Positions 21,408 through 63,544 of a stretch of DNA of 64,000 nucleotides are shown here, piece after piece. Under the pieces are notes generated by a model that was not told the DNA's origin, did no database searches, and saw only the letters and a program-made list of their open reading frames with translations. The DNA is taken from assembly GCF_964213995.1 (NCBI RefSeq), contig NW_027590121.1, positions 1,054,001 to 1,118,000 of the forward strand. Reading direction: 5' to 3'. Source of the stretch: Mustelus asterias. Its lineage: Eukaryota. A program made the position numbers and the translations under genes. The stretch's first letter is position 1. Every line of letters starts with the position of its first letter.

Positions 21408-22230
21408 GATACAAAGCTGGGCTGAAAAATGGCAGATGGAGTTTAACCCTGATAAATGTGAGGTGATTCATTTTGGTAGGACAAATTTAAATGTGGATTA
21501 CAGGGTCAAAGGTAGGGTTCTGAAGACTGTGGAGGAACAGAGAGATCTTGTGGTCCATATCCACAGATCATTGAAGGTTGCCATTCAAGTGGATAGAGCT
21601 ATGAAAAAGGCCTATAGTGTGTTAGCTTTTATTAACAGGGGGTTGGGGTTTAAGAGCCGTGGGGTTATGCTGCAACTGTACAGGACCTTGGTGAGACCAC
21701 ATTTGGAATATTGAGTGCAGTTCTGGTCACCTCACTATAAGAAGGATGTGGAAGCGCTGGAAGGAGTGCAAAGGAGATTTACCAAGATGCTGCCTGGTTT
21801 GGAGGGTATGTCTTATGAGGAAAGGTTGAGGGAGCTGGGGCTGTTCTCTCTGGAGCGGAGGAGGTTGAGGGGAGACTTAATAGAGGTTTATAAAATGATG
21901 AAGGGGATAGATAGAGTGAACGTTCAAAGAGTATTTCCTCGGGTGGATGGAGCTATTACAAGGGGGCATAACTATAGGGTTCATGGTGGAGATATAGGAA
22001 GGATGTCCGAGGAGGTTCTTTACTCAGAGAGTGGATGGGGTGTGGAATGGACTGCCTGCAGTGATTGTGGAGTCAGACACTTGAGGAACATTGAAGCGGT
22101 TATTGGATAGGCACATGGAGCACACCAGGATGGTAGGGAGTGGGATAGCTTGATCTTGGTTTCACATCAAGCTCGGCACAACATCGAGAGCCGAAGGGCC
22201 TGTACTGTGCTGTACTGTTCTATGTTCTAT
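21408..22230 (+). mobile_element. 5'-truncated CR1 of the same young family as the full-length copy at 57153-61753
   Basis: Near-identical to 60932-61753 by eye, with a stop and a small deletion; (GTTCTAT)n tail. Confidence 0.92.
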
Positions 22231-33466: not shown

Positions 33467-33642
33467 AGTTTTTGTATGAGGCCCGCGGGATCCTCATTCA
33501 CTGTGGGCCTCAGTGCACAGTAATACACGGCGCTGTCTGTCATCTTCTATCCTTTCACTGACAAGTGAAAAGTGCTTTATTTCAGGTTGTGATTCCCGCT
33601 GAGGTGTTCAAAGCCGGGAGCCGTATCGGTAAACCCATAACT
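33467..33642 (-). pseudogene. TCR V 3' remnant with a perfect 23-RSS
   Basis: SYGFTDTAPGFEHLSGNHNLK*STFHLSVKG*KMTDSAVYYCALR, then CACAGTG (33499-33505) + 23 + ACAAAAACT. Confidence 0.88.
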
Positions 33643-34780
33643 CCCAAACCAGATCCTTGCGGTACACCACTAATAACTGAACTCCAGGATGAACATTTCC
33701 CATCAACCACCACCCTCTGTCTTCTTACAGCTAGCCAATTTCTGATCCAAACCGCTAAGTCACCCTCAGTCCCATGCGTCCGTATTTTCTGCAATAGCTT
33801 ACCGTGGGGTACCTTATCAAACGCTTTACTGAAATCCATATACACCACATCAACTGCTTTACCCTCATCCACCTCTTTGGTCACCTCCTCAAAGAACTCA
33901 GTAAGGTTTGTGAGGCACGACCTACCCTTCCCAAAATCGTGCTGACTATCCCTAATCAAATTATTAATTTCCAGATGATTATTAATCCTATCTCTTATAA
34001 TCCTTTCCAAAACTTTGCCCACAACAGAAGTAAGGCTCACTGGTCTATAATTACCAGGGTTGTCTCTACTCCCCTTCTTGAACAAGGGGACAACATTTGC
34101 TATCCTCCAGTCTTCTGGCACTATTCCTGGAGACAATGACGACATAAAGATCAAAGCCAACGGCTCTGTAATCTCCTCCCTAGCCTCCCAGAGAATCCTA
34201 GGATAAATCCCATTCGGCCCAGGGGACTTATCTATTTTCACACTTTCCAGAATTGCTAACGCCTCCTCCTTATGAACCTCAACCCCGTCTAGTCAAATAG
34301 CCTGTATCTCAGTATTCTCCTCGACAACATTGTCTTTTTCCTGTGTGAATACTGACGGAAAATATTCATTTAGCGCCCCCCCTATCTCTTCGGAATTCCC
34401 ACTACTGTCCTTGACTGGCCCTAATCTTATCCTAGTCATTCTTTTATTCCTGATATACCCATAGAAAACTTTAGGGTTTTCCTTGATCCTACCTGCCAAA
34501 GACTTATCATGTCCCCTCCTGACTCTTCTTAGCTCTCTCTTTAGGTCCTTCCTGGCTAACTTGTAACTCTCAAGCGCCCTAACTGAGCCTTCACGTCTCA
34601 TCTTTACATAAGTCTCCTTCTTCCTCTTCACAAGAGATTCAACTTTTTTTAGTAAACCACGGTTCCCTCGCTCGACCACTTCCTCCCTGCCTGACAGGTA
34701 CATACTATCAAGGACACGCAGTAGCTGTTCCTTGAACATTTCAATTGTGCCCGTCCCCTGCAGTTTCCTTCCCCATCATA
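33643..34780 (-). mobile_element. Internal CR1 ORF2 fragment lacking a 3' tail, fused to the V remnant
   Basis: ORFs 33582-34241 and 34293-34739 match CR1 ORF2 (KSPGP, NYRPVSLTS, GVPQGS). Confidence 0.92.
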
Positions 34781-36436
34781 TGGTCCAATCCAGCTCCTGT
34801 TCCCTATTCTCTGTTGTTCTTCTGTCCAGTTCATTGTTCTGAGAAAAGAATCAACTGAATGAAGAATTCCAGAAGAAGAGATAAATATCTCATAATGTAA
34901 CTAGTACATAATAAGGAATAGCGTGATTTCGGAGAGCTGCTTGTTCATCTAGAATACTAGACAGCAGCATATCCACAATGCTATTGCTCCCGTAATCGTT
35001 GCAGCAAACATACAAACTTGGTGAGGCAGCTCCATCCGGTGGCAATCTGAGGTAAATGACCATTTCCTGGAAAATCACAGAATTCATAAATTACTGAAGG
35101 CTGTTCGTTTAATATTATTATGTCACATTATTCCTGAAAGTATTATTACTATTGCAATGCAGTGAACATATCCACCAGAGCTAATTCTACCTTAATTTGA
35201 AATCCCGGTGAACAGTGATAGGGCTAGTAGATGAGGGGAGGAATAGTCCCTCTTCGTATGAAAAAATATTTCGGTTACTATTGCTCACAAACTCAAAGTA
35301 TCCAGAAAACAACGGGACCCGCAAATCTTGTCACTCCACTATGACGGTCAAAGTGACAACTCTTTCTGGCAGAGACCCATAAGACCCCGTGTCTTCTGTA
35401 TAAATAATGTTTCTAACAACATTACAGCGGCAACACTGGAGATCAATTTCCATAGTGTGTAAAGTGCTTTCAAATGTCCAGGGTGCTGGACCAGTAGAAA
35501 CTCTTCTTTCTCTTGTCGAGTAATAGTTCGTTCCAGGGGTTAAATTTATTGTCCGGCTGTTTCCACCGGGCCCAGTAATGTTTTTTTTAAATTTCCGTTT
35601 TTTAAATTTCGATCCAGCTTTTCCATGATTGGGTTGATGAGCAGTCACCACTTTCAGGAATTCCAAGTATTAGGTATCCAGTCTGTTCCGAGATTCTTTC
35701 CTCTCCACAGGAGTGCTTCAGGAAAAACAACCTGAATAGATACTTGGGTGACGTTGATGGAAAGTGACCGAAGCACTGAACGGCTGCTTGCTATCTATCT
35801 CTCAGTTCTGATCCTGGTCACCTCGATTAAAGGTTTACACTAATCTACCTTCATGTGTAAATATAAACTATATATTGATTGTTAAAGCGGTGCAATATCC
35901 AAAATTAGCAGTACAAGCGCTAATCTACAAACGCCGCTCCCCAGGTGAGGTTCAGTTGTTAGCTCTATCGTCTCTGGAGCAGATGTTTTCAGAATTCCAC
36001 TCTCTCTACAGAGACTCTCCTTACAGGACCCATTCAGATGCGGCAGTGCAGCCCAAGGGGAATGGTGAATTGTCCGGGGTGCCGAATGAGATGTTAAATG
36101 GACGGCACCGACTCCCCTCTCAGAGGGAGGTGATAGTTCAAAAGGACACGATTGTGAAGAAGAGCAGTTGAATTGCTCGAGTCAATTACTACCCAAAATA
36201 AACGTTCTGAAACAAGCGATCCATTAAAATGTTGCTGTTTGAAGGATCAACCGGGGATCAAATTGGCTGCCGTCTCTTCTCTACTCATTGTAACAGTGAC
36301 GGTGAACACTCTGTGGTACATCAAGGAAGGCGCCATATAGATAGTTCATTCTTATTCACTCAACGACCCAAGTTTACATGCTGAGTGATATTCTAAGAGT
36401 ATTTCGACAGCTTCAGCGCAGCTCTGCGTCTATGTG

Positions 36437-55370: not shown

Positions 55371-56918
55371 ACATAGAACATAGAAAAGCTACAGCACAAA
55401 CAGGCCCTTCGGCCCACAAGTTGTGCCGAACAATTTCCTTACCTTCTAGGCTCATCTATAACCCTCCATCTTACTAACCTCCATGAACCTATCCAAAAGT
55501 TTCTTAAAAGACTCAATTGAATCCGCTTCCACCACCACTACCGGCAGCCGATTCCACGCACCCGCCACCCTCTGAGCGAAACACTTACCCTGAACATCTC
55601 CTCTGTACCTACTCCCCAGCACCCTAAACCTGTGGCCTCTCGTGACAACCATTTCAGCCCTGGGTAAAAGCATCTGAGAATCCATTCTATCAATACCCCT
55701 CAACATCTTATACACCTCTATCAGGTCACCTCTCATCCTTCGCCTCTCCAAGGAGAAAAGACCTAGCTCTCTCAACCTATCCTCAAAAGGCATACCACTT
55801 AATCCTGGCAACATCCTCGTAAATCTCCTCTGCACCCGTTCTATGGCTTCCACATCCTTTCTGTAATGAGGCGACCAGAACTGGGCACAGTACTCCAGTT
55901 GGGGTCTGACCAGGATCCTATACAGCTGCAGCATTATCTCCCGATTTCTAAACTCAATTCCTCTATTGATGAAGGCCAGTATTCCATACGCCTTCTTAAC
56001 CACAGCCTCTACCTGTGACGCTGCTTTGAGCCCGGACCCCAAGATCCCTCTGTTCTTCCAGACTGCCAAGCGTCTTACCCTTAATATTATATTCTTCCAT
56101 CCTATTCGACCGACCAAAATGACCCACCACTCACTTATCTGGGTTGAAGTCCATCTGCCATTTCTCTGCCCAGTCTTGCATCTTATCTATGTCTCGTTGC
56201 AACTGTTGACATCCCTCTACACTATCCATAACACCTCCAACCTTTGTGTCATCAGCAAACTTGCCAACCCATTCTTCCACTTCCTCATCCAGGTCATTTA
56301 TAAAAATCACAAAGAGCAAGGGTCCCAGAACAGATCCCTGGGGCACCCCACTGGTGACCGACCTCCACTCTGAAAAAGATCCATCTAGAACCACCCTTTG
56401 CCTTCTGTGAGCAAGCCAGTTCTGAATACACAAAGCAACATCACCTTGTATCCCTTGCCCCTTCACTTTCTCCATAAGCCTTGCATGGGGCACCTTATCA
56501 AACACCTTACTGAAATCCATATAAACCACATTTACCGCTCTTCCGCCGTCTAAGTGTCTAGTCACATCTTCAAAAAACTCAATCAGACTCGTAAGGAATG
56601 ATCTGCCTCGGACAAAGCCGTGCTGGCTACTTCTGATCATACTATTCCTTTCCAAATGTTCATAAATCCTGCCTCTCAGGATCTTCTCCATCAACTTACC
56701 TACCACTGAGGTTAGACTCACCGGTCTATAATTTCCTGGGCAATTTCTTCTCCCTTTCTTGAATAACGGAACCACATCCGCCATCCTCCAATCCTCCGGA
56801 ACCTCTCCCGTCTCCATTGATGACGCAAAGATCATCGCCAGAGGATCAACAATCTCTTCCTCACCTCCCACAGTAACCTGGGGTACATCCCATCCGGTCC
56901 CGGCGATTTATCTAACTT
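55371..56918 (-). mobile_element. 5'-truncated CR1 LINE with 6-bp TSD
   Basis: RT ORFs 56131-56871 and 55452-56117; (GTTCTAT)n tail; AAGTGA at 55365-55370 and 56919-56924. Confidence 0.93.
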
Positions 56919-57148: not shown

Positions 57149-57575
57149 ATCCACTGGAGCAAGCTGAGAGGGGTGATTGAAGGCAGCAGTGCTGGTGAGA
57201 GATTAATTGGATTAATTGAATTGTTTATTTATTTAATTAGTCAGCTAGTGTGTGTATTTTTTTTGGCCTTTACTTTAACAGCAGTTTTTCAAGTTTAAAG
57301 TGAAAACTAGAAGTGGGCAGCAAAGGAGTCTGGGAAGGGTTTTTATTTTAACTTTAAAAGTCAGTTACCTGGGAGGTTCCCCCTCATTGATCCACTGGAG
57401 CAAGCTGAGAGGGGTGATTGAAGGCAGCAGTGCTGGTGAGAGATTAATTGAATTGTTTATTTATTTAATTAGTCAGCTAGTGTGTGTATTTTTTTGGCCT
57501 TTACTTTAACAGCAGTTTTTCAAGTTTAAAGTGAAAACTAGAAGTGGGCAGCAAAGGAGTCTGGTAAGGGTTTTT
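57149..57575 (+). repeat. Two-copy direct repeat (period 241 bp) in the CR1 5' UTR
   Basis: atccactggagcaagctgagagggg at 57149 and 57390. Confidence 0.92.
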
Positions 57576-57639
57576 TAAGCGCGTGAAGTATAAAAGGTAG
57601 GCTGCAGTATACAGCGGGCAGCGTCGGGAGCGGGCAGTG

Positions 57640-57792
57640 GAGTGTGTGGGAAGCAGAGTGTGAGCTATAAGACTTTGGCTCACAGGGCTTGAGTGTGTGG
57701 GAAGCAGAGTGTGAGCTATAAGACTTTGGCTCACAGGGCTTGAGTGTGTGGGAAGCAGAGTGTGAGCTATAAGACTTTGGCTCACAGGGCTT
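57640..57792 (+). repeat. Three exact 51-bp tandem repeats in the CR1 5' UTR
   Basis: gagtgtgtgggaagcagagtgtgagctataagactttggctcacagggctt at 57640, 57691 and 57742. Confidence 0.97.
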
Positions 57793-57870
57793 AGGCTGAA
57801 AGGGCGAGCAGGGGTGAGTTGAATTCATTTTTGCACTTTCTACCTGGTACTGGCAAGGTATCTAGAGGGG

Positions 57871-58797
57871 ATGGGTGTGCAGGCAGTGCAATGTTCCTCT
57901 TGCACTATGTTTGAGGTGAGGGACGACGACAGTGTCCCTACTGATTACACCTGTGGGAAGTGCACCCATCTGCAGCTCCTCCAAAACCATGTTAGGGAAC
58001 TGGAGCTGGAGTTGGAGGAACTTAGGATCATCAGGGACGCAGAGATGGCCATAGACACAAGCTTTAGGAATACAGTTACTCCGAGGATTGAAAACAGATG
58101 GGTGACGGTGAGAGGGGCTGGGAGGAAGCAGTCCGTGCAGGGATCCCCGGTGGTCGTTCCCCTTAGCAACAAGTATTCCGCTTTGGATACGGTTGAGGGG
58201 GATGACATACCAGTGGGGAGCCGCAGTGAGAGGATCTCCAGCACTGTGTCCGTCTCTGTGGCTCGGGAGGGAAAGGGGGAGAGCGGGAGGGCGATAGTTA
58301 TTGGGGACTCGTTAGTTAGAGGGATAGATAGGAGGTTCTGTGGCAGCAAAAGAGACTCATGGATGGTATGTTGCCAACCGGATGCCAAGGTCCGTGATGT
58401 CTCAGACCGTGTTTTCCAGATTCTGAAGGGGGAGGGGAAACAGTCACAAGTCGTGGTGCACATTGGTACCAATGACATAGGTAAGAGAAGGGACGGGGAT
58501 TTAAAGCAGGAATTTCTGGAGCTGGGCTGGAAGCTGAGAGCCAAGACGAAACATGTGGTCATCTCTGGTACGTTGCCGGTACCACGTGATAGCGAGTTGA
58601 GGAACAGGGAGAGAGTGCAGTTAAATATGTGGTTGCAGGGATGGTGTAGGAGGGAGGGTTTCAGATACGTGGATAATTGGAACACGTTCTGGGGAAGGTG
58701 GGACCTGTACAAACAGGACGGGGTGCACCTGAACCAGAGGGGCACCAATATCCTCGGAGGGAAATTTGTTACGGCTCTTCAGGGGGGTTTAAACTAA
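57871..58797 (+). CDS. CR1 ORF1: zinc finger, coiled coil and SGNH esterase
   Basis: CSSC...CGKC motif, LELELEELR heptads, IGDS, HIGTND and DGVH motifs. Confidence 0.93.
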   Translation: MGVQAVQCSSCTMFEVRDDDSVPTDYTCGKCTHLQLLQNHVRELELELEELRIIRDAEMAIDTSFRNTVTPRIENRWVTVRGAGRKQSVQGSPVVVPLSNKYSALDTVEGDDIPVGSRSERISSTVSVSVAREGKGESGRAIVIGDSLVRGIDRRFCGSKRDSWMVCCQPDAKVRDVSDRVFQILKGEGKQSQVVVHIGTNDIGKRRDGDLKQEFLELGWKLRAKTKHVVISGTLPVPRDSELRNRERVQLNMWLQGWCRREGFRYVDNWNTFWGRWDLYKQDGVHLNQRGTNILGGKFVTALQGGLN

Positions 58798-61679
58798 TTT
58801 GTCAGGGGAGTGGGAAAGGGAGTTGTAGTCCAGAAGTCAGTGAGGGTGGTGAGGTATTGGGGAAGGTATCAGGGTCAAGGGTGGGTACTGGTAGACAGGA
58901 AGGTGGGTTGAAGTGTGTCTACTTCAATGCAAGGAGCATCCGGAACAAGGTAGATGAACTTGGGGCGTGGATTGGTACTTGGGACTACGATGTTGTGGCC
59001 ATTACGGAGACGTGGGTAGAACAAGGACAGGAATGGTTGTTGGACGTTCCGGGGTATAGATGTTTCACTAAGTGTAGGGAAGCTGGTAAAAGAGGTGGAG
59101 GAGTGGCATTGTTAATCAAGGATAGTTTAACGGCTGCGGAAAGGCACTTTGTGGGGGATCTGCACACTGAGGTAATATGGGCTGAAGTTAGAAATAGGAA
59201 AGGAGCGGTCACGTTGCTAGGAGTTTACTATAGGCCCCCAAATAGTAATAGAGATGTGGAGGAAGAAATTGCTAAGCAGATTATGGATATGTGTGGGGGT
59301 CACAGGGTAGTTGTCATGGGGGACTTTAACTTTCCAAATATTGATTGGAACCTTTGTCGGTCAAATAGTTTGGATGGGGCAGTTTTTGTGCAGTGTGTGC
59401 GGGAGGGTTTCCTGACACAATATGTGGATGGGCCGACTAGAGGTGAGGCCACATTGGATTTGGTACTGGGAAATGAACCGGGCCAAGTGTTAGATTTGGT
59501 TGTGGGAGAGCACTTTGGAGATAGTGACCACAATTCGGTGTCTTTTGTTATTGCAATGGAGAGGGATAGGGCCGTACGGCAGGGCAAGGTTTACAATTGG
59601 GGGAGGGGTAATTATGATGCGATTAGGCAAGAATTAGGGGGCATAAGTTGGGAACAGAAACTGTCAGAGAAAGGAACTAATGAAAAGTGGAACTTTTTCA
59701 AGGAACAAATACTGGATGTCCTTGATAGGTATGTTCCTGTCAGGCAGGGAGGAAATGGCCGAGTGAGGGAACCATGGTTCACGAAAGAGGTGGAATGTCT
59801 TGTGAAAAGGAAGAGGGAAGCTTATGTAGGGATGAGGAAACAAGGTTCAGATGGCTCGATTGAGGGTTACAAGTTAGCAAGGAATGAGCTGAAAAAGGGG
59901 CTTAGGAGAGCTAGGAGGGGACATGAGAAGTCCTTGGCGGGTCGGATCAAGGAAAACCCCAAGGCTTTTTACTCTTATGTGAGGAATAAAAGAATGACCA
60001 GGGTGAGGTTAGGGCCGGTCAAGGACAGTAGTGGGAACTTGTGTATGGAGTCAGTAGAGATAGGCGAGGTGATGAATGAATACTTTTCTTCAGTGTTCAC
60101 CAAGGAGAGGGGCCATGTTTTTGAGGAAGAGAAGGTGTTACAGGCTAATAGGCTGGAGGAAATAGATGTTCGGAGGGAGGATGTCTTGGCAGTTTTGAAT
60201 AAACTGAAGGTCGATAAGTCCCCTGGGCCTGATGAAATGTATCCTAGGATTCTGTGGGAGGCAAGGGATGAGATTGCAGAGCCTTTGGCTTTGATCTTTG
60301 GGTCCTCGCTGTCCACGGGGATGGTGCCAGAGGACTGGAGAGTGGCAAATGTTGTTCCTCTGTTTAAGAAAGGGAATAGAAATGACCCTGGTAATTATAG
60401 ACCGGTTAGTCTTACTTCGGTGGTTGGTAAATTGATGGAAAGGGTCCTTAGGGATGGGATTTACGACCATTTAGAAAGATGCGGATTAATCCGAGATAGT
60501 CAGCACGGATTCGTGAAGGGCAAGTCGTGCCTCACAAATTTGATAGAATTTTTTGAGGAGGTAACTAAGTGTGTTGATGAAGGTAGGGCAGTTGATGTCA
60601 TATACATGGATTTTAGTAAGGCGTTTGATAAGGTCCCCCATGGTCGGCTTATGATGAAAGTGAGGAGGTGTGGGATAGAGGGAAAGTTGGCCGATTGGAT
60701 AGGTAACTGGCTGTCTGACCGAAGACAGAGGGTGGTGGTCGATGGAAAATTTTCGGATTGGAGGCAGGTTGCTAGCGGTGTGCCGCAGGGATCAGTGCTT
60801 GGTCCTCTGCTCTTTGTGATTTTTATCAATGACTTAGAGGAGGGGGCTGAAGGGTGGATCAGTAAATTTGCTGATGACACCAAGATTGGTGGAGTAGTGG
60901 ATGAGGTGGAGGGCTGTTGTAGGTTGCATAGGATGCAAAGCTGGGCTGAAAAATGGCAAATGGAGTTTAACCCTGATAAATGTGAGGTGATTCATTTTGG
61001 TAGGACAAATTTAAATGTGGATTACAGGGTCAAAGGTAGGGTTCTGAAGACTGTGGAGGAACAGAGAGATCTTGGGGTCCATATCCACAGATCTCTAAAG
61101 GTTGCCAGTCAAGTGGATAGAGCTGTGAAGAAGGCCTATAGTGTGTTAGCTTTTATTAACAGGGGGTTGGAGTTTAAGAGCCGTGGGGTTATGCTGCAAC
61201 TGTCCAGGACCTTGGTGAGACCACATTTGGAATATTGTGTGCAGTTCTGGTCACCTCACCATAAGAAGGATGTGGAAGCACTGGAAAGAGTGCAGAGGAG
61301 ATTTACCAGGATGCTGCCTGGTTTGGAGGGTAGGTCATATGAGGAAAGGTTGAGGGAGCTAGGGCTGTTCTCTCTGGAGCGGAGGAGGCTGAGGGGAGAC
61401 TTAATAGAGGTTTATAAAATGATGAAGGGGATAGATAGAGTGAACGTTCAAAGACTATTTCCTCGGGTGGATGGAGCTATTACAAGGGGGCATAACTATA
61501 GGGTTCGTGGTGGGAGATACAGGACGGATATCAGAGGTAGGTTCTTTACGCAGAGAGTGGTTGGGGTGTGGAATGGACTGCCTGCAGTGATAGTGGAGTC
61601 AGACACTTTAGAAACATTTAAGCGGTTATTGGATAGGCACATGGAGCACACCAGGATGATAGGGAGTGGGATAGCTTGA
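58677..61679 (+). CDS. CR1 ORF2: APE endonuclease and reverse transcriptase (open frame, no upstream AUG)
   Basis: FNARS, ITETW, GDFN and SDH endonuclease motifs; QGSVLGP and FADD RT motifs; first in-frame ATG only at 59283. Confidence 0.95.
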   Translation: MEHVLGKVGPVQTGRGAPEPEGHQYPRREICYGSSGGFKLICQGSGKGSCSPEVSEGGEVLGKVSGSRVGTGRQEGGLKCVYFNARSIRNKVDELGAWIGTWDYDVVAITETWVEQGQEWLLDVPGYRCFTKCREAGKRGGGVALLIKDSLTAAERHFVGDLHTEVIWAEVRNRKGAVTLLGVYYRPPNSNRDVEEEIAKQIMDMCGGHRVVVMGDFNFPNIDWNLCRSNSLDGAVFVQCVREGFLTQYVDGPTRGEATLDLVLGNEPGQVLDLVVGEHFGDSDHNSVSFVIAMERDRAVRQGKVYNWGRGNYDAIRQELGGISWEQKLSEKGTNEKWNFFKEQILDVLDRYVPVRQGGNGRVREPWFTKEVECLVKRKREAYVGMRKQGSDGSIEGYKLARNELKKGLRRARRGHEKSLAGRIKENPKAFYSYVRNKRMTRVRLGPVKDSSGNLCMESVEIGEVMNEYFSSVFTKERGHVFEEEKVLQANRLEEIDVRREDVLAVLNKLKVDKSPGPDEMYPRILWEARDEIAEPLALIFGSSLSTGMVPEDWRVANVVPLFKKGNRNDPGNYRPVSLTSVVGKLMERVLRDGIYDHLERCGLIRDSQHGFVKGKSCLTNLIEFFEEVTKCVDEGRAVDVIYMDFSKAFDKVPHGRLMMKVRRCGIEGKLADWIGNWLSDRRQRVVVDGKFSDWRQVASGVPQGSVLGPLLFVIFINDLEEGAEGWISKFADDTKIGGVVDEVEGCCRLHRMQSWAEKWQMEFNPDKCEVIHFGRTNLNVDYRVKGRVLKTVEEQRDLGVHIHRSLKVASQVDRAVKKAYSVLAFINRGLEFKSRGVMLQLSRTLVRPHLEYCVQFWSPHHKKDVEALERVQRRFTRMLPGLEGRSYEERLRELGLFSLERRRLRGDLIEVYKMMKGIDRVNVQRLFPRVDGAITRGHNYRVRGGRYRTDIRGRFFTQRVVGVWNGLPAVIVESDTLETFKRLLDRHMEHTRMIGSGIA

Positions 61680-61753
61680 TCTTGGTTTCAGATAAAGCTC
61701 GGCACAACATCGTGGGCCGAAGGGCCTGTTCTGTGCTGTACTGTTCTATGTTC

Positions 61754-62758
61754 AAATCCCTTCCCACATTCAGCACATGTGAATGGCCTCTCCCCAGTGT
61801 GAACTCGCTGGTGTGTCAGCAGGTTCGATGACTGAGTGAAACCCTTCCCACACACAGAGCAGGTGAACGGTCTCTCCCCAGTGTGAACTCGCTGGTGCAT
61901 CAGAAGTTTGGATGAGGAAGGGAATCCCTTCCCACACTCAGAGCAGATGAATGGTCTCCCCCCAGTTTGAACACACTGGTGTGTCAGAAGGACGGATGAC
62001 TGAGTAAATCCCTTGCTACACTCAGGGCAGGTGAACAGCCTCTCCCCGGTGTGAATTTGCTGGTGTACAGTGAGATGAGATGATCGCTTGAATGCAGACC
62101 CACAGTGAGAGCATCTGAACGGTCTCTCATCAGTGTGAACAGGTTGATGCTGCATCAAGTCCTGGGAACTTTTAAAGTGTTTTCCACAGTCTGGACATGT
62201 AAAAGGTCTCTCATCAGTGTGAACTCGCTGGTGTGTCAGCAGTTTGTATTGCTGAGTAAATCCTTTCCCACACATGGAACAGGTGAATGGCCTCTCATTG
62301 CTGTGAACACGTTGATGGCCCATCAGTTCCCCAGAACATTTGTAACACTTCCCACAGTCTGAGCATTTAAATGGTCTCTCCTCAGTGTGAACTCGCTGGT
62401 GATTCAACAGGGTGGATGACTGAATGAATCCCTTCCCACACACAGAACAGGTGAACGGCCTTTCCCCAGTGTGAAGTCGCTGATGTGTCAGAAGGTAGGA
62501 TTGACGAGTGAATCCCTTCCCACATTTGAAGCAGGTGAACGGTTTCTCCCCAGTGTGACTGAGCCAATGACCTTCCAGGCCAGACGGGGATTTGAATCCC
62601 TTCCCACAATCCCTGCATTTCCACGGTTTCTTCCTGGATTGACTGCATTTGTGTTTCAACAGGTCAGATGATTGGCTGAAGCCTCGTCCACACACAGAAC
62701 ACGTGTATGGATTTTCCCCACTGTGAACGGTGCTTGTTCCTTCCATGTTCAAAATCAA
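61754..62758 (-). pseudogene. C2H2 zinc-finger array gene (about 12 fingers), truncated in its last finger by the CR1
   Basis: ORF 61688-62758 reads CAECGKGF straight into the CR1 tail. The missing LMRHQQAHK* lies at about 57100-57145. Confidence 0.9.
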
Positions 62759-63544
62759 ATGATATTCAGGTTACGATAAATTGGAAAACTCTACCAGGTT
62801 GTGATGTGATGTTTCGTTTCAATTTCCCGACTGCAAATCCTGCTCTTCTAAAACCCTGTATAACTGTTTCAAAACAGAAAAAAAGGGAGTGAGAGAGAAC
62901 TCATAAAAACACAGGCAGTTTGTGAAATTGAACTGAATTAATCTGGTCATTTGTACGTCCGTCACTGGGAAAAAGTGACAATGAAAACTGCTGGATTGTT
63001 GTAGAAATGCAACTTATTCACTGATATCCTTCGGAGAAGGGAACCTGCCACACGGTCTGGGTCTACAGAAGACTGTCTCCACTAATTTCAAAACTGTTCC
63101 TGAACACCAAGGTCTGGGTCATTTGTGTACATTAGGAAGAGCAGGGTGTTAACACCAGCTCCTGAGAACTCCCAAACATCCATTAACCAATATTTCATGA
63201 GTTTCCTGTCCCGTGGACAATTTTATGTCAATGTTGTTATTGTCCCTTTCATTCCACGAGTCATAACTTTGTTCCTAAGTCTGTTGTGCAGCAATTTATC
63301 TAATGCCTTTTGGAAGTCCATGTTCACCATATTAATAGCATTATCCTCAACACTGGTGTCTTAACCTCATCAAAAAACAGGTTAAGCAGGTTAGTTCCCT
63401 TCACAAATCCATGCTGGCTTTCCTTATTAACCCACATTTACTCAGGTGACTATTAAATTTGTCCTCAATTATTGTTTCAGGAATTTTCCCTTTCGCCAAG
63501 ATTAAACTGACTATAGTTTCTGGGATTATCTTCACACCAGTTAT

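Follow-up and report, generated by a model that had tools for sequence, protein, structure and literature searches.

A candidate programmed -1 frameshift signal at the ORF1-ORF2 junction of esterase-type CR1 retrotransposons

How ribosomes reach the second open reading frame (ORF2) of long interspersed nuclear elements (LINEs) is an open question; the studied cases, human L1 and silkworm SART1, point to reinitiation. In both, as reviews outline, ORF2 lies on a bicistronic RNA and depends on translation of ORF1, has an AUG of its own and yields a separate protein. Retroviruses and coronaviruses use -1 frameshifting at an in-register X_XXY_YYZ heptamer (U_UUA_AAC, G_GGA_AAC), by which an upstream ORF is joined to a polymerase ORF lying in the -1 frame (gag-pol, ORF1a/1b). 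Both of these heptamers are named among the most shift-prone in the accessible part of PMC5009743, which ascribes LINE ORF2 translation to unusual initiation and, in that part, makes no mention of CR1. For the Dictyostelium elements TRE5-A and TRE3-A, the legend in one review states that ORF2 requires a -1 frameshift (PMC5911963), so that there is a precedent for -1 frameshifting among LINEs. As far as that source goes, these are non-LTR (long terminal repeat) elements with an apurinic/apyrimidinic endonuclease (APE) like the one described here, from which they differ in clade and in ORF1. The element analysed in this work is a full-length CR1-type LINE of the shark Mustelus asterias. It lies on the plus strand at positions 57149-61753 (limits from alignment to sister copies) of a window of 64,000 nt, i.e. 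the whole stretch of DNA under study (assembly GCF_964213995.1, contig NW_027590121.1, positions 1,054,001 to 1,118,000).

This element shares with the viral systems an in-register heptamer and a -1-frame polymerase ORF; it differs from them in being a non-LTR element with no Pfam protease, for which no conserved pseudoknot or stem-loop was found. Unlike L1 and SART1, most lineages related to it have no AUG at the start of ORF2 and carry a slippery site instead. Judging from the sequences, we consider it very probable that CR1 LINEs with an esterase in ORF1 produce their endonuclease and reverse transcriptase (RT) joined to the ORF1 protein in an ORF1-ORF2 fusion, through programmed -1 frameshifting on a heptamer that ends ORF1. 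Such a fusion had been suggested by the first-pass annotation of the window; it is now supported by the presence of heptamer and frame in seven families, by the lack of an AUG in the window family and by the existence of two forms of the heptamer. No description of frameshifting in CR1 appeared in the full-text literature as available, including PMC5009743, PMC11835228, PMC2881922, PMC1925062, PMC5972666, PMC5911963, PMC5006619, PMC6609765, PMC3905857 and PMC3708506; the original CR1 papers of 1997-2003 and the Repbase notes were outside this search and may hold an earlier suggestion. In these texts, vertebrate CR1-clade LINEs are given two ORFs and no mechanism of expression, whereas here a mechanism is proposed for the junction.

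ORF1 of the window element (57871-58797, plus strand; ATG at 57871, 308 aa) ends with GGT TTA AAC TAA and its product with Gly-Leu-Asn. The U_UUA_AAC heptamer at 58788-58794, formed by the last two codons and the base preceding them, is in the X_XXY_YYZ register of ORF1 and is followed immediately by the stop codon at 58795-58797; a stop is found at this place in 126 of the 134 copies introduced below. ORF2 occupies the -1 frame, is open from 58677 to 61679 and reads F-K-L-I from 58788, that is, it is entered before the 0-frame stop. Its first AUG is at 59283, codon 166, as compared to codon 47 for the Asn of the endonuclease motif FNARS (119 codons past that motif), and the three ATGs between the ORF1 stop and position 59000 are all out of the ORF2 frame. 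A G-rich stretch begins at 58805, 10 nt past the heptamer. The first-pass annotation had read the heptamer, the frames, the first ORF2 AUG and the place of the G-rich stretch correctly. Canonical heptamers are in register at 8 of the 1271 codon positions of the element, and the one at the junction occupies the last position possible in ORF1; its presence there is thus beyond chance. A second heptamer, G_GGU_UUA (58785-58791, plus strand), overlaps the first one codon upstream and is not universal, being found in 16 of 134 copies, which belong to families W, C and D. Another near-match in the window (35832) was discarded, as neither ORF1 nor endonuclease homology surrounds it.

In the 3.7-Gb genome 1121 candidates were listed, and the 40 with the highest scores are 100% identical to the window over positions 58600-59100 (501 nt). 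The junction is therefore the state of a family and no quirk of a single copy, and the element is, by this identity, a copy of a very young family. For a sample of copies, the Pfam esterase model was used as the query and 110 of 150 matches were taken (30 loci plus 80 fetched), so that the motif itself was not selected on. A distant family, F, was added from 30 of 150 matches; in this case the query extended over the two final residues of ORF1. Five loci ending before the junction, one ending just after the stop and one duplicate were dropped. The remaining 134 copies, window element included, fall into the window family (W, 2 copies) and families A (47), B (34), C (15), D (4), E (1) and F (31), which share 69-83% DNA identity where alignable and 37-73% protein identity in the C-terminal part of ORF1.

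TTTAAAC is present in 121 of the 134 copies and in all seven families, which is the outcome that the conservation check proposed in the first-pass annotation called for; copies without it show single changes or nearby indels. Nine consecutive positions (TTTAAAC and the following TA) have a modal base common to all seven families, against 5 of 30 positions upstream. Synonymous choice was assessed with one real copy per family. The terminal Leu is encoded by TTA and the Asn by AAC in all seven, against a single codon in 5 of 29 other invariant ORF1 residues (1 of 6 for other Leu, 0 of 2 for other Asn); as a background, TTA makes up 16% of Leu codons and AAC 38% of Asn codons. The base preceding TTA is T in every family despite four different residues at that codon (G, S, D, A). 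Locus L061, where a 1290-codon open frame spans the esterase match, was considered as a natural fusion and rejected: its frameshift lies inside ORF1 and its junction is ordinary.

More distant relatives allowed the slippery pattern to be separated from the residues it encodes. A set of 150 distant ORF1 representatives includes 106 with a DxxH motif and 80 with a tail of 22-32 residues. These 80 proteins end in Leu-Asn (39), Gly-Asn (9), Glu-Asn (3), Ser-Asn (2), Lys-Asn (1) or otherwise (26). It was predicted, ahead of any scan, that Gly-Asn ends would correspond to G_GGA_AAC. The scan of metagenomes used a pattern taken from the GDS motif, far upstream of the junction, and returned five loci, one of which ends short of it. 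G_GGA_AAC was found in three of the four that contain the junction: L171 and L172, where TAG follows, and L174, one codon before TAG. In both loci that are long enough, L171 and L175, ORF2 lies in the -1 frame and continues into endonuclease and RT, while the sequences of L172 and L174 break off within a few codons. These relatives have about 30% ORF1 identity to the shark families. Since the residue changes from Leu to Gly while XXX-AAA-C stays, the kept feature is the slippery pattern and not the amino acid. Altogether, nucleotide conservation at the junction exceeds coding need, and the XXX triplet covaries. Further ORF1 groups (P0135, P0165, P0139, P0172 and relatives) end in Glu-Asn, Tyr-Leu-Asn, Ser-Leu-Asn or Lys-Asn; these are known from proteins alone, and suggest more slippery variants, e.g. 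A_AAA_AAC.

Where ORF2 can be entered was judged from the reading frames on either side of the heptamer. Upstream, the -1 frame is closed within six codons in 111 of 134 copies, and for 28 of 30 copies of family F the closure is a single codon away; hence entry is confined to the heptamer region in most copies. The window family is an exception, its -1 frame being open 37 codons upstream. Downstream, an AUG-less linker in the -1 frame (58788-58913, plus strand, 126 nt in the window element) leads to the APE-type endonuclease domain (58920-59531, plus strand; PF03372, E 5e-23), which contains the first in-frame ATG, and then to the RT domain (60372-61079, plus strand; PF00078, E 2e-31). Every modal distance from heptamer to endonuclease (126/129, 141, 147, 150, 177, 360 nt) is a multiple of three, although the linkers are divergent in sequence; that of family F is 120 codons long. 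No stop interrupts the -1 frame of the linker in any of the eight assessable elements (family E and L172 could not be assessed), as compared to 1-12 and 4-18 stops in the other two frames. The claim that no AUG precedes the endonuclease stands for the window family and, across these elements, for five of eight, where the first Met is inside the endonuclease (W, A, B, C and L175); it fails in D, F and L171.

Homologous proteins extend the pattern to other vertebrates. Among 46 close ORF1 homologs, 34 end in Leu-Asn, including those of named sharks, rays and skates, one ends in Ile-Asn and 11 end elsewhere, apparently being truncated or frameshifted. Leu-Asn ends are also seen in ORF1 proteins of lizard, turtle, sturgeon and eel. 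The residues to be expected from a -1 reading, S-F-K-L, occur in four of 15 gene models inspected (three from stork, one from turtle). A search of viral contigs and of GTDB for amniote-type DNA gave nothing usable, the GTDB yielding one weak 19-residue match. Four public sequencing runs were consulted as contigs, a form in which rare variants are lost and which carries no information on strand, starts or expression level; runs contributing a small share were left aside. At the junction these contigs show neither an indel nor a splice joint, and none of the 19 variant sites listed in 58700-58900 falls within 58788-58808. NCBI gives one ORF1 protein of this LINE type (P0007), on a 4-kb contig, as an SGNH hydrolase from Pseudomonas aeruginosa; this label is likely to reflect contamination.

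The G-rich stretch past the heptamer (58805-58820, plus strand) is a candidate stimulator. A run of at least four G begins 8-12 nt past the heptamer in all seven family representatives and in the three metagenome loci tested, such a run being found at that distance from 0.5-8.5% of background positions; at offsets 7-13 it is present in 122 of the 134 copies. Gly codons of the linker could account for it in part. In family F (L141-L170) the post-stop run is unstable in length, ranging from 6 to more than 20 G, and single copies are often thrown out of frame by it. The first-pass annotation had proposed that the stretch folds into a G-quadruplex (G4). The run keeps a fixed distance from the heptamer, but a conserved G4 structure was not confirmed, and the proposal is weakly supported. 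According to PMC3919603, G4-stimulated shifting needs a stable G4, has its optimum at 6-8 nt and reached about 7%. No G4 of the required kind (stable, three-tier and short-looped, at 6-8 nt from the heptamer) was found in the first 70 nt of families W and A-F: none is predicted in W or F, and two-tier forms only in A-E. The junction stretch has a G4Hunter score of 1.52, exceeded by four other regions of the element. G4 was thus rejected as a general stimulator. So were downstream and upstream hairpins, with z scores near zero; of 28 folds, one (family F, 120 nt) reached -2.1. The nearest likeness is to the nsp2 signal of the pig virus PRRSV. There, according to PMC4937337, a slippery site with no obvious downstream structure is followed about 10 nt on by a short single-stranded C-rich motif, to which a protein complex binds. 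The motif is G-rich in the present case, where no binding protein is known, and the likeness is an analogy only.

Under the frameshifting proposal, the majority of ribosomes would stop and release ORF1p (308 aa in the window element). A minority, with tRNA-Leu and tRNA-Asn on UUA-AAC, would slip back one base and resume at the Leu codon 58794-58796. Their product would be a fusion of about 1270 aa comprising zinc finger, esterase, flexible linker, endonuclease and RT. No protease domain was identified by Pfam in the window element, and the fusion would therefore probably stay whole. The ratio of the two products would be set as for gag and gag-pol, and the enzyme would be tied to ORF1p. The pause would probably come from the adjacent stop codon together with the G-run 8-12 nt downstream, the latter more likely through protein binding, as with the C-rich motif of PRRSV, than as a weak two-tier G4. 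As a tentative extension, an ancient CR1 branch spanning sharks, amniotes and distant relatives might use -1 frameshifting to make its polymerase as a gag-pol-like fusion, the stimulus coming from a protein on the G-run about 10 nt downstream and not from an RNA fold; this protein could be a host G-tract binder or ORF1p itself, acting in feedback. Most likely, then, a mechanism established elsewhere is at work in a family of elements where we found no report of it, with the G-run as no more than a candidate stimulator.

Several points weigh against the proposal. The families share ancestry, so that counts of copies and families are not independent. Terminal Asn is missing from 26 of the 80 distant ORF1 proteins (it is present in 54), L175 has no canonical heptamer, being one change away from G_GGA_AAU, and support in amniotes is from proteins only. 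The linker stop count was made on chosen representative copies; of 102 copies taken individually, only 64 keep the frame. In three of eight elements the endonuclease comes after an in-frame Met, at codon 4 in D, 75 in F and 64 in L171; in family D this Met is part of a UAAUG, in the ORF2 frame and overlapping the slippery site, in three of four copies (L041, L080, L100). No conserved hairpin lies downstream (minimum free energy z scores from -1.2 to +1.0 over the first 70 nt), and a search for a long-range partner of the G-run found no site common to all families.

The best-surviving alternative is termination-reinitiation at or just past the ORF1 stop, which would yield ORF2 as a protein of its own, either independently of an AUG, as in L1, or coupled to UAAUG, as in SART1. 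This is the mechanism that reviews give for both studied bicistronic LINEs (PMC2881922, PMC5972666). The family D UAAUG is its best support, and the calicivirus case indicates that reinitiation tolerates loss of the AUG. However, no AUG overlaps or adjoins the stop outside family D (3 of 134 copies in all), and the codon at the restart position varies by family (ATT, GAA, GTA, GTT, ATG, AAT). A UGGGA core is found 17 nt past the heptamer in families W, A, B and C; in a termination upstream ribosome-binding site (TURBS), this core must be upstream of the stop, where UGGGA positions differ between families, and a TURBS was rejected for want of a fixed place. Reinitiation also leaves unaccounted for the three fixed synonymous positions upstream of the stop and the switch to G_GGA_AAC. 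The exchange of Leu for Gly with the slippery pattern kept counts equally against a protein constraint, as neither explanation predicts it. We consider reinitiation improbable as the general route, and the family D lineage may use both it and frameshifting.

It is very unlikely, in our estimate, that the heptamer is a by-product of a required C-terminal Leu-Asn, with ORF2 starting without an AUG somewhere in the ORF1 overlap or the linker, or being read from an RNA that is spliced or begins internally. Leu-Asn is indeed the commonest ORF1 end, and in the window family the -1 frame, open for 37 codons upstream, offers TTG, CTG and GTG codons. Yet that frame is closed in most families, and the change from Leu to Gly is precisely the one to be expected from the slippery pattern. 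As to splicing, no junction joints are seen in the public-run contigs, among which one of 1757 nt, from a run guessed to be RNA, covers 57775-59520 without a gap. A frame change at the RNA level, by polymerase slippage in T/A or G runs or by editing, is the least probable reading of all: the length of the downstream G-run does vary often between genomic copies, but an indel in that run, which is 3' of the ORF1 stop, cannot bring the two frames together, the T and A runs are short (three each), and no heptamer indel is listed in the public-run contigs, which do drop rare variants.

The remaining parts of the element are as follows. The 5' untranslated region (UTR; 57149-57870, plus strand) contains a duplication of about 200 nt and a 51-nt unit repeated three times in tandem (about 57640-57792), of which sister copies, when aligned, differ by one or two units; this arrangement of duplicated and tandem units (57149-57792) resembles modular LINE promoters. 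ORF1 encodes an SGNH esterase (PF13472, E 5e-12) with GDS, GTND and DGVH motifs, and a CX2CX16CX2C motif is present in its translation. In the RT region, an in-frame 12-nt deletion after about 60928 is private to the window copy, all six sister copies examined keeping the 12 nt; the copy may therefore be impaired. The short 3' UTR (61680-61753, plus strand) ends with a short tandem repeat in place of poly(A), a feature of CR1 elements. SGNH-esterase ORF1, APE-RT ORF2 and tandem-repeat 3' end are all common to vertebrate CR1-clade LINEs of the esterase type and the window element. The presence of an esterase in CR1 is stated in PMC3905857. Closest named protein homologs are from sharks, rays and skates, and a stork protein annotated as an RT-domain protein has 44% identity to the window element over 922 aligned residues. 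Assignment to the CR1 clade, a probable one, is based on architecture, the repeat 3' end and this pairwise match to a bird protein; the tree that was made is of ORF1.

The 3' end of the element adjoins, in opposite orientation, a C2H2 zinc-finger array (61754-62770, minus strand), on which basis a ZNF gene was probably hit by the insertion in its last exon. Inspection by eye showed no evident target-site duplication. The window also holds 5'-truncated LINE fragments of several ages, at 55452-56907 (minus strand), 5894-7135 (plus), 33597-34781 (minus), 21409-22150 (plus) and elsewhere, none of which extends to the ORF1/ORF2 junction.

CR1 is a major LINE of birds, reptiles and sharks, and makes up 11.8% of chicken chromosomes according to PMC11835228. 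If the proposal is true, the heptamer is where ORF2 starts in these elements, and annotations that start from the first ATG lose endonuclease motifs; criteria for an intact copy would have to include the junction. The active enzyme would be an esterase-endonuclease-RT fusion, and vertebrate genomes would harbour a widespread, conserved -1 frameshift with an unusual stimulator.

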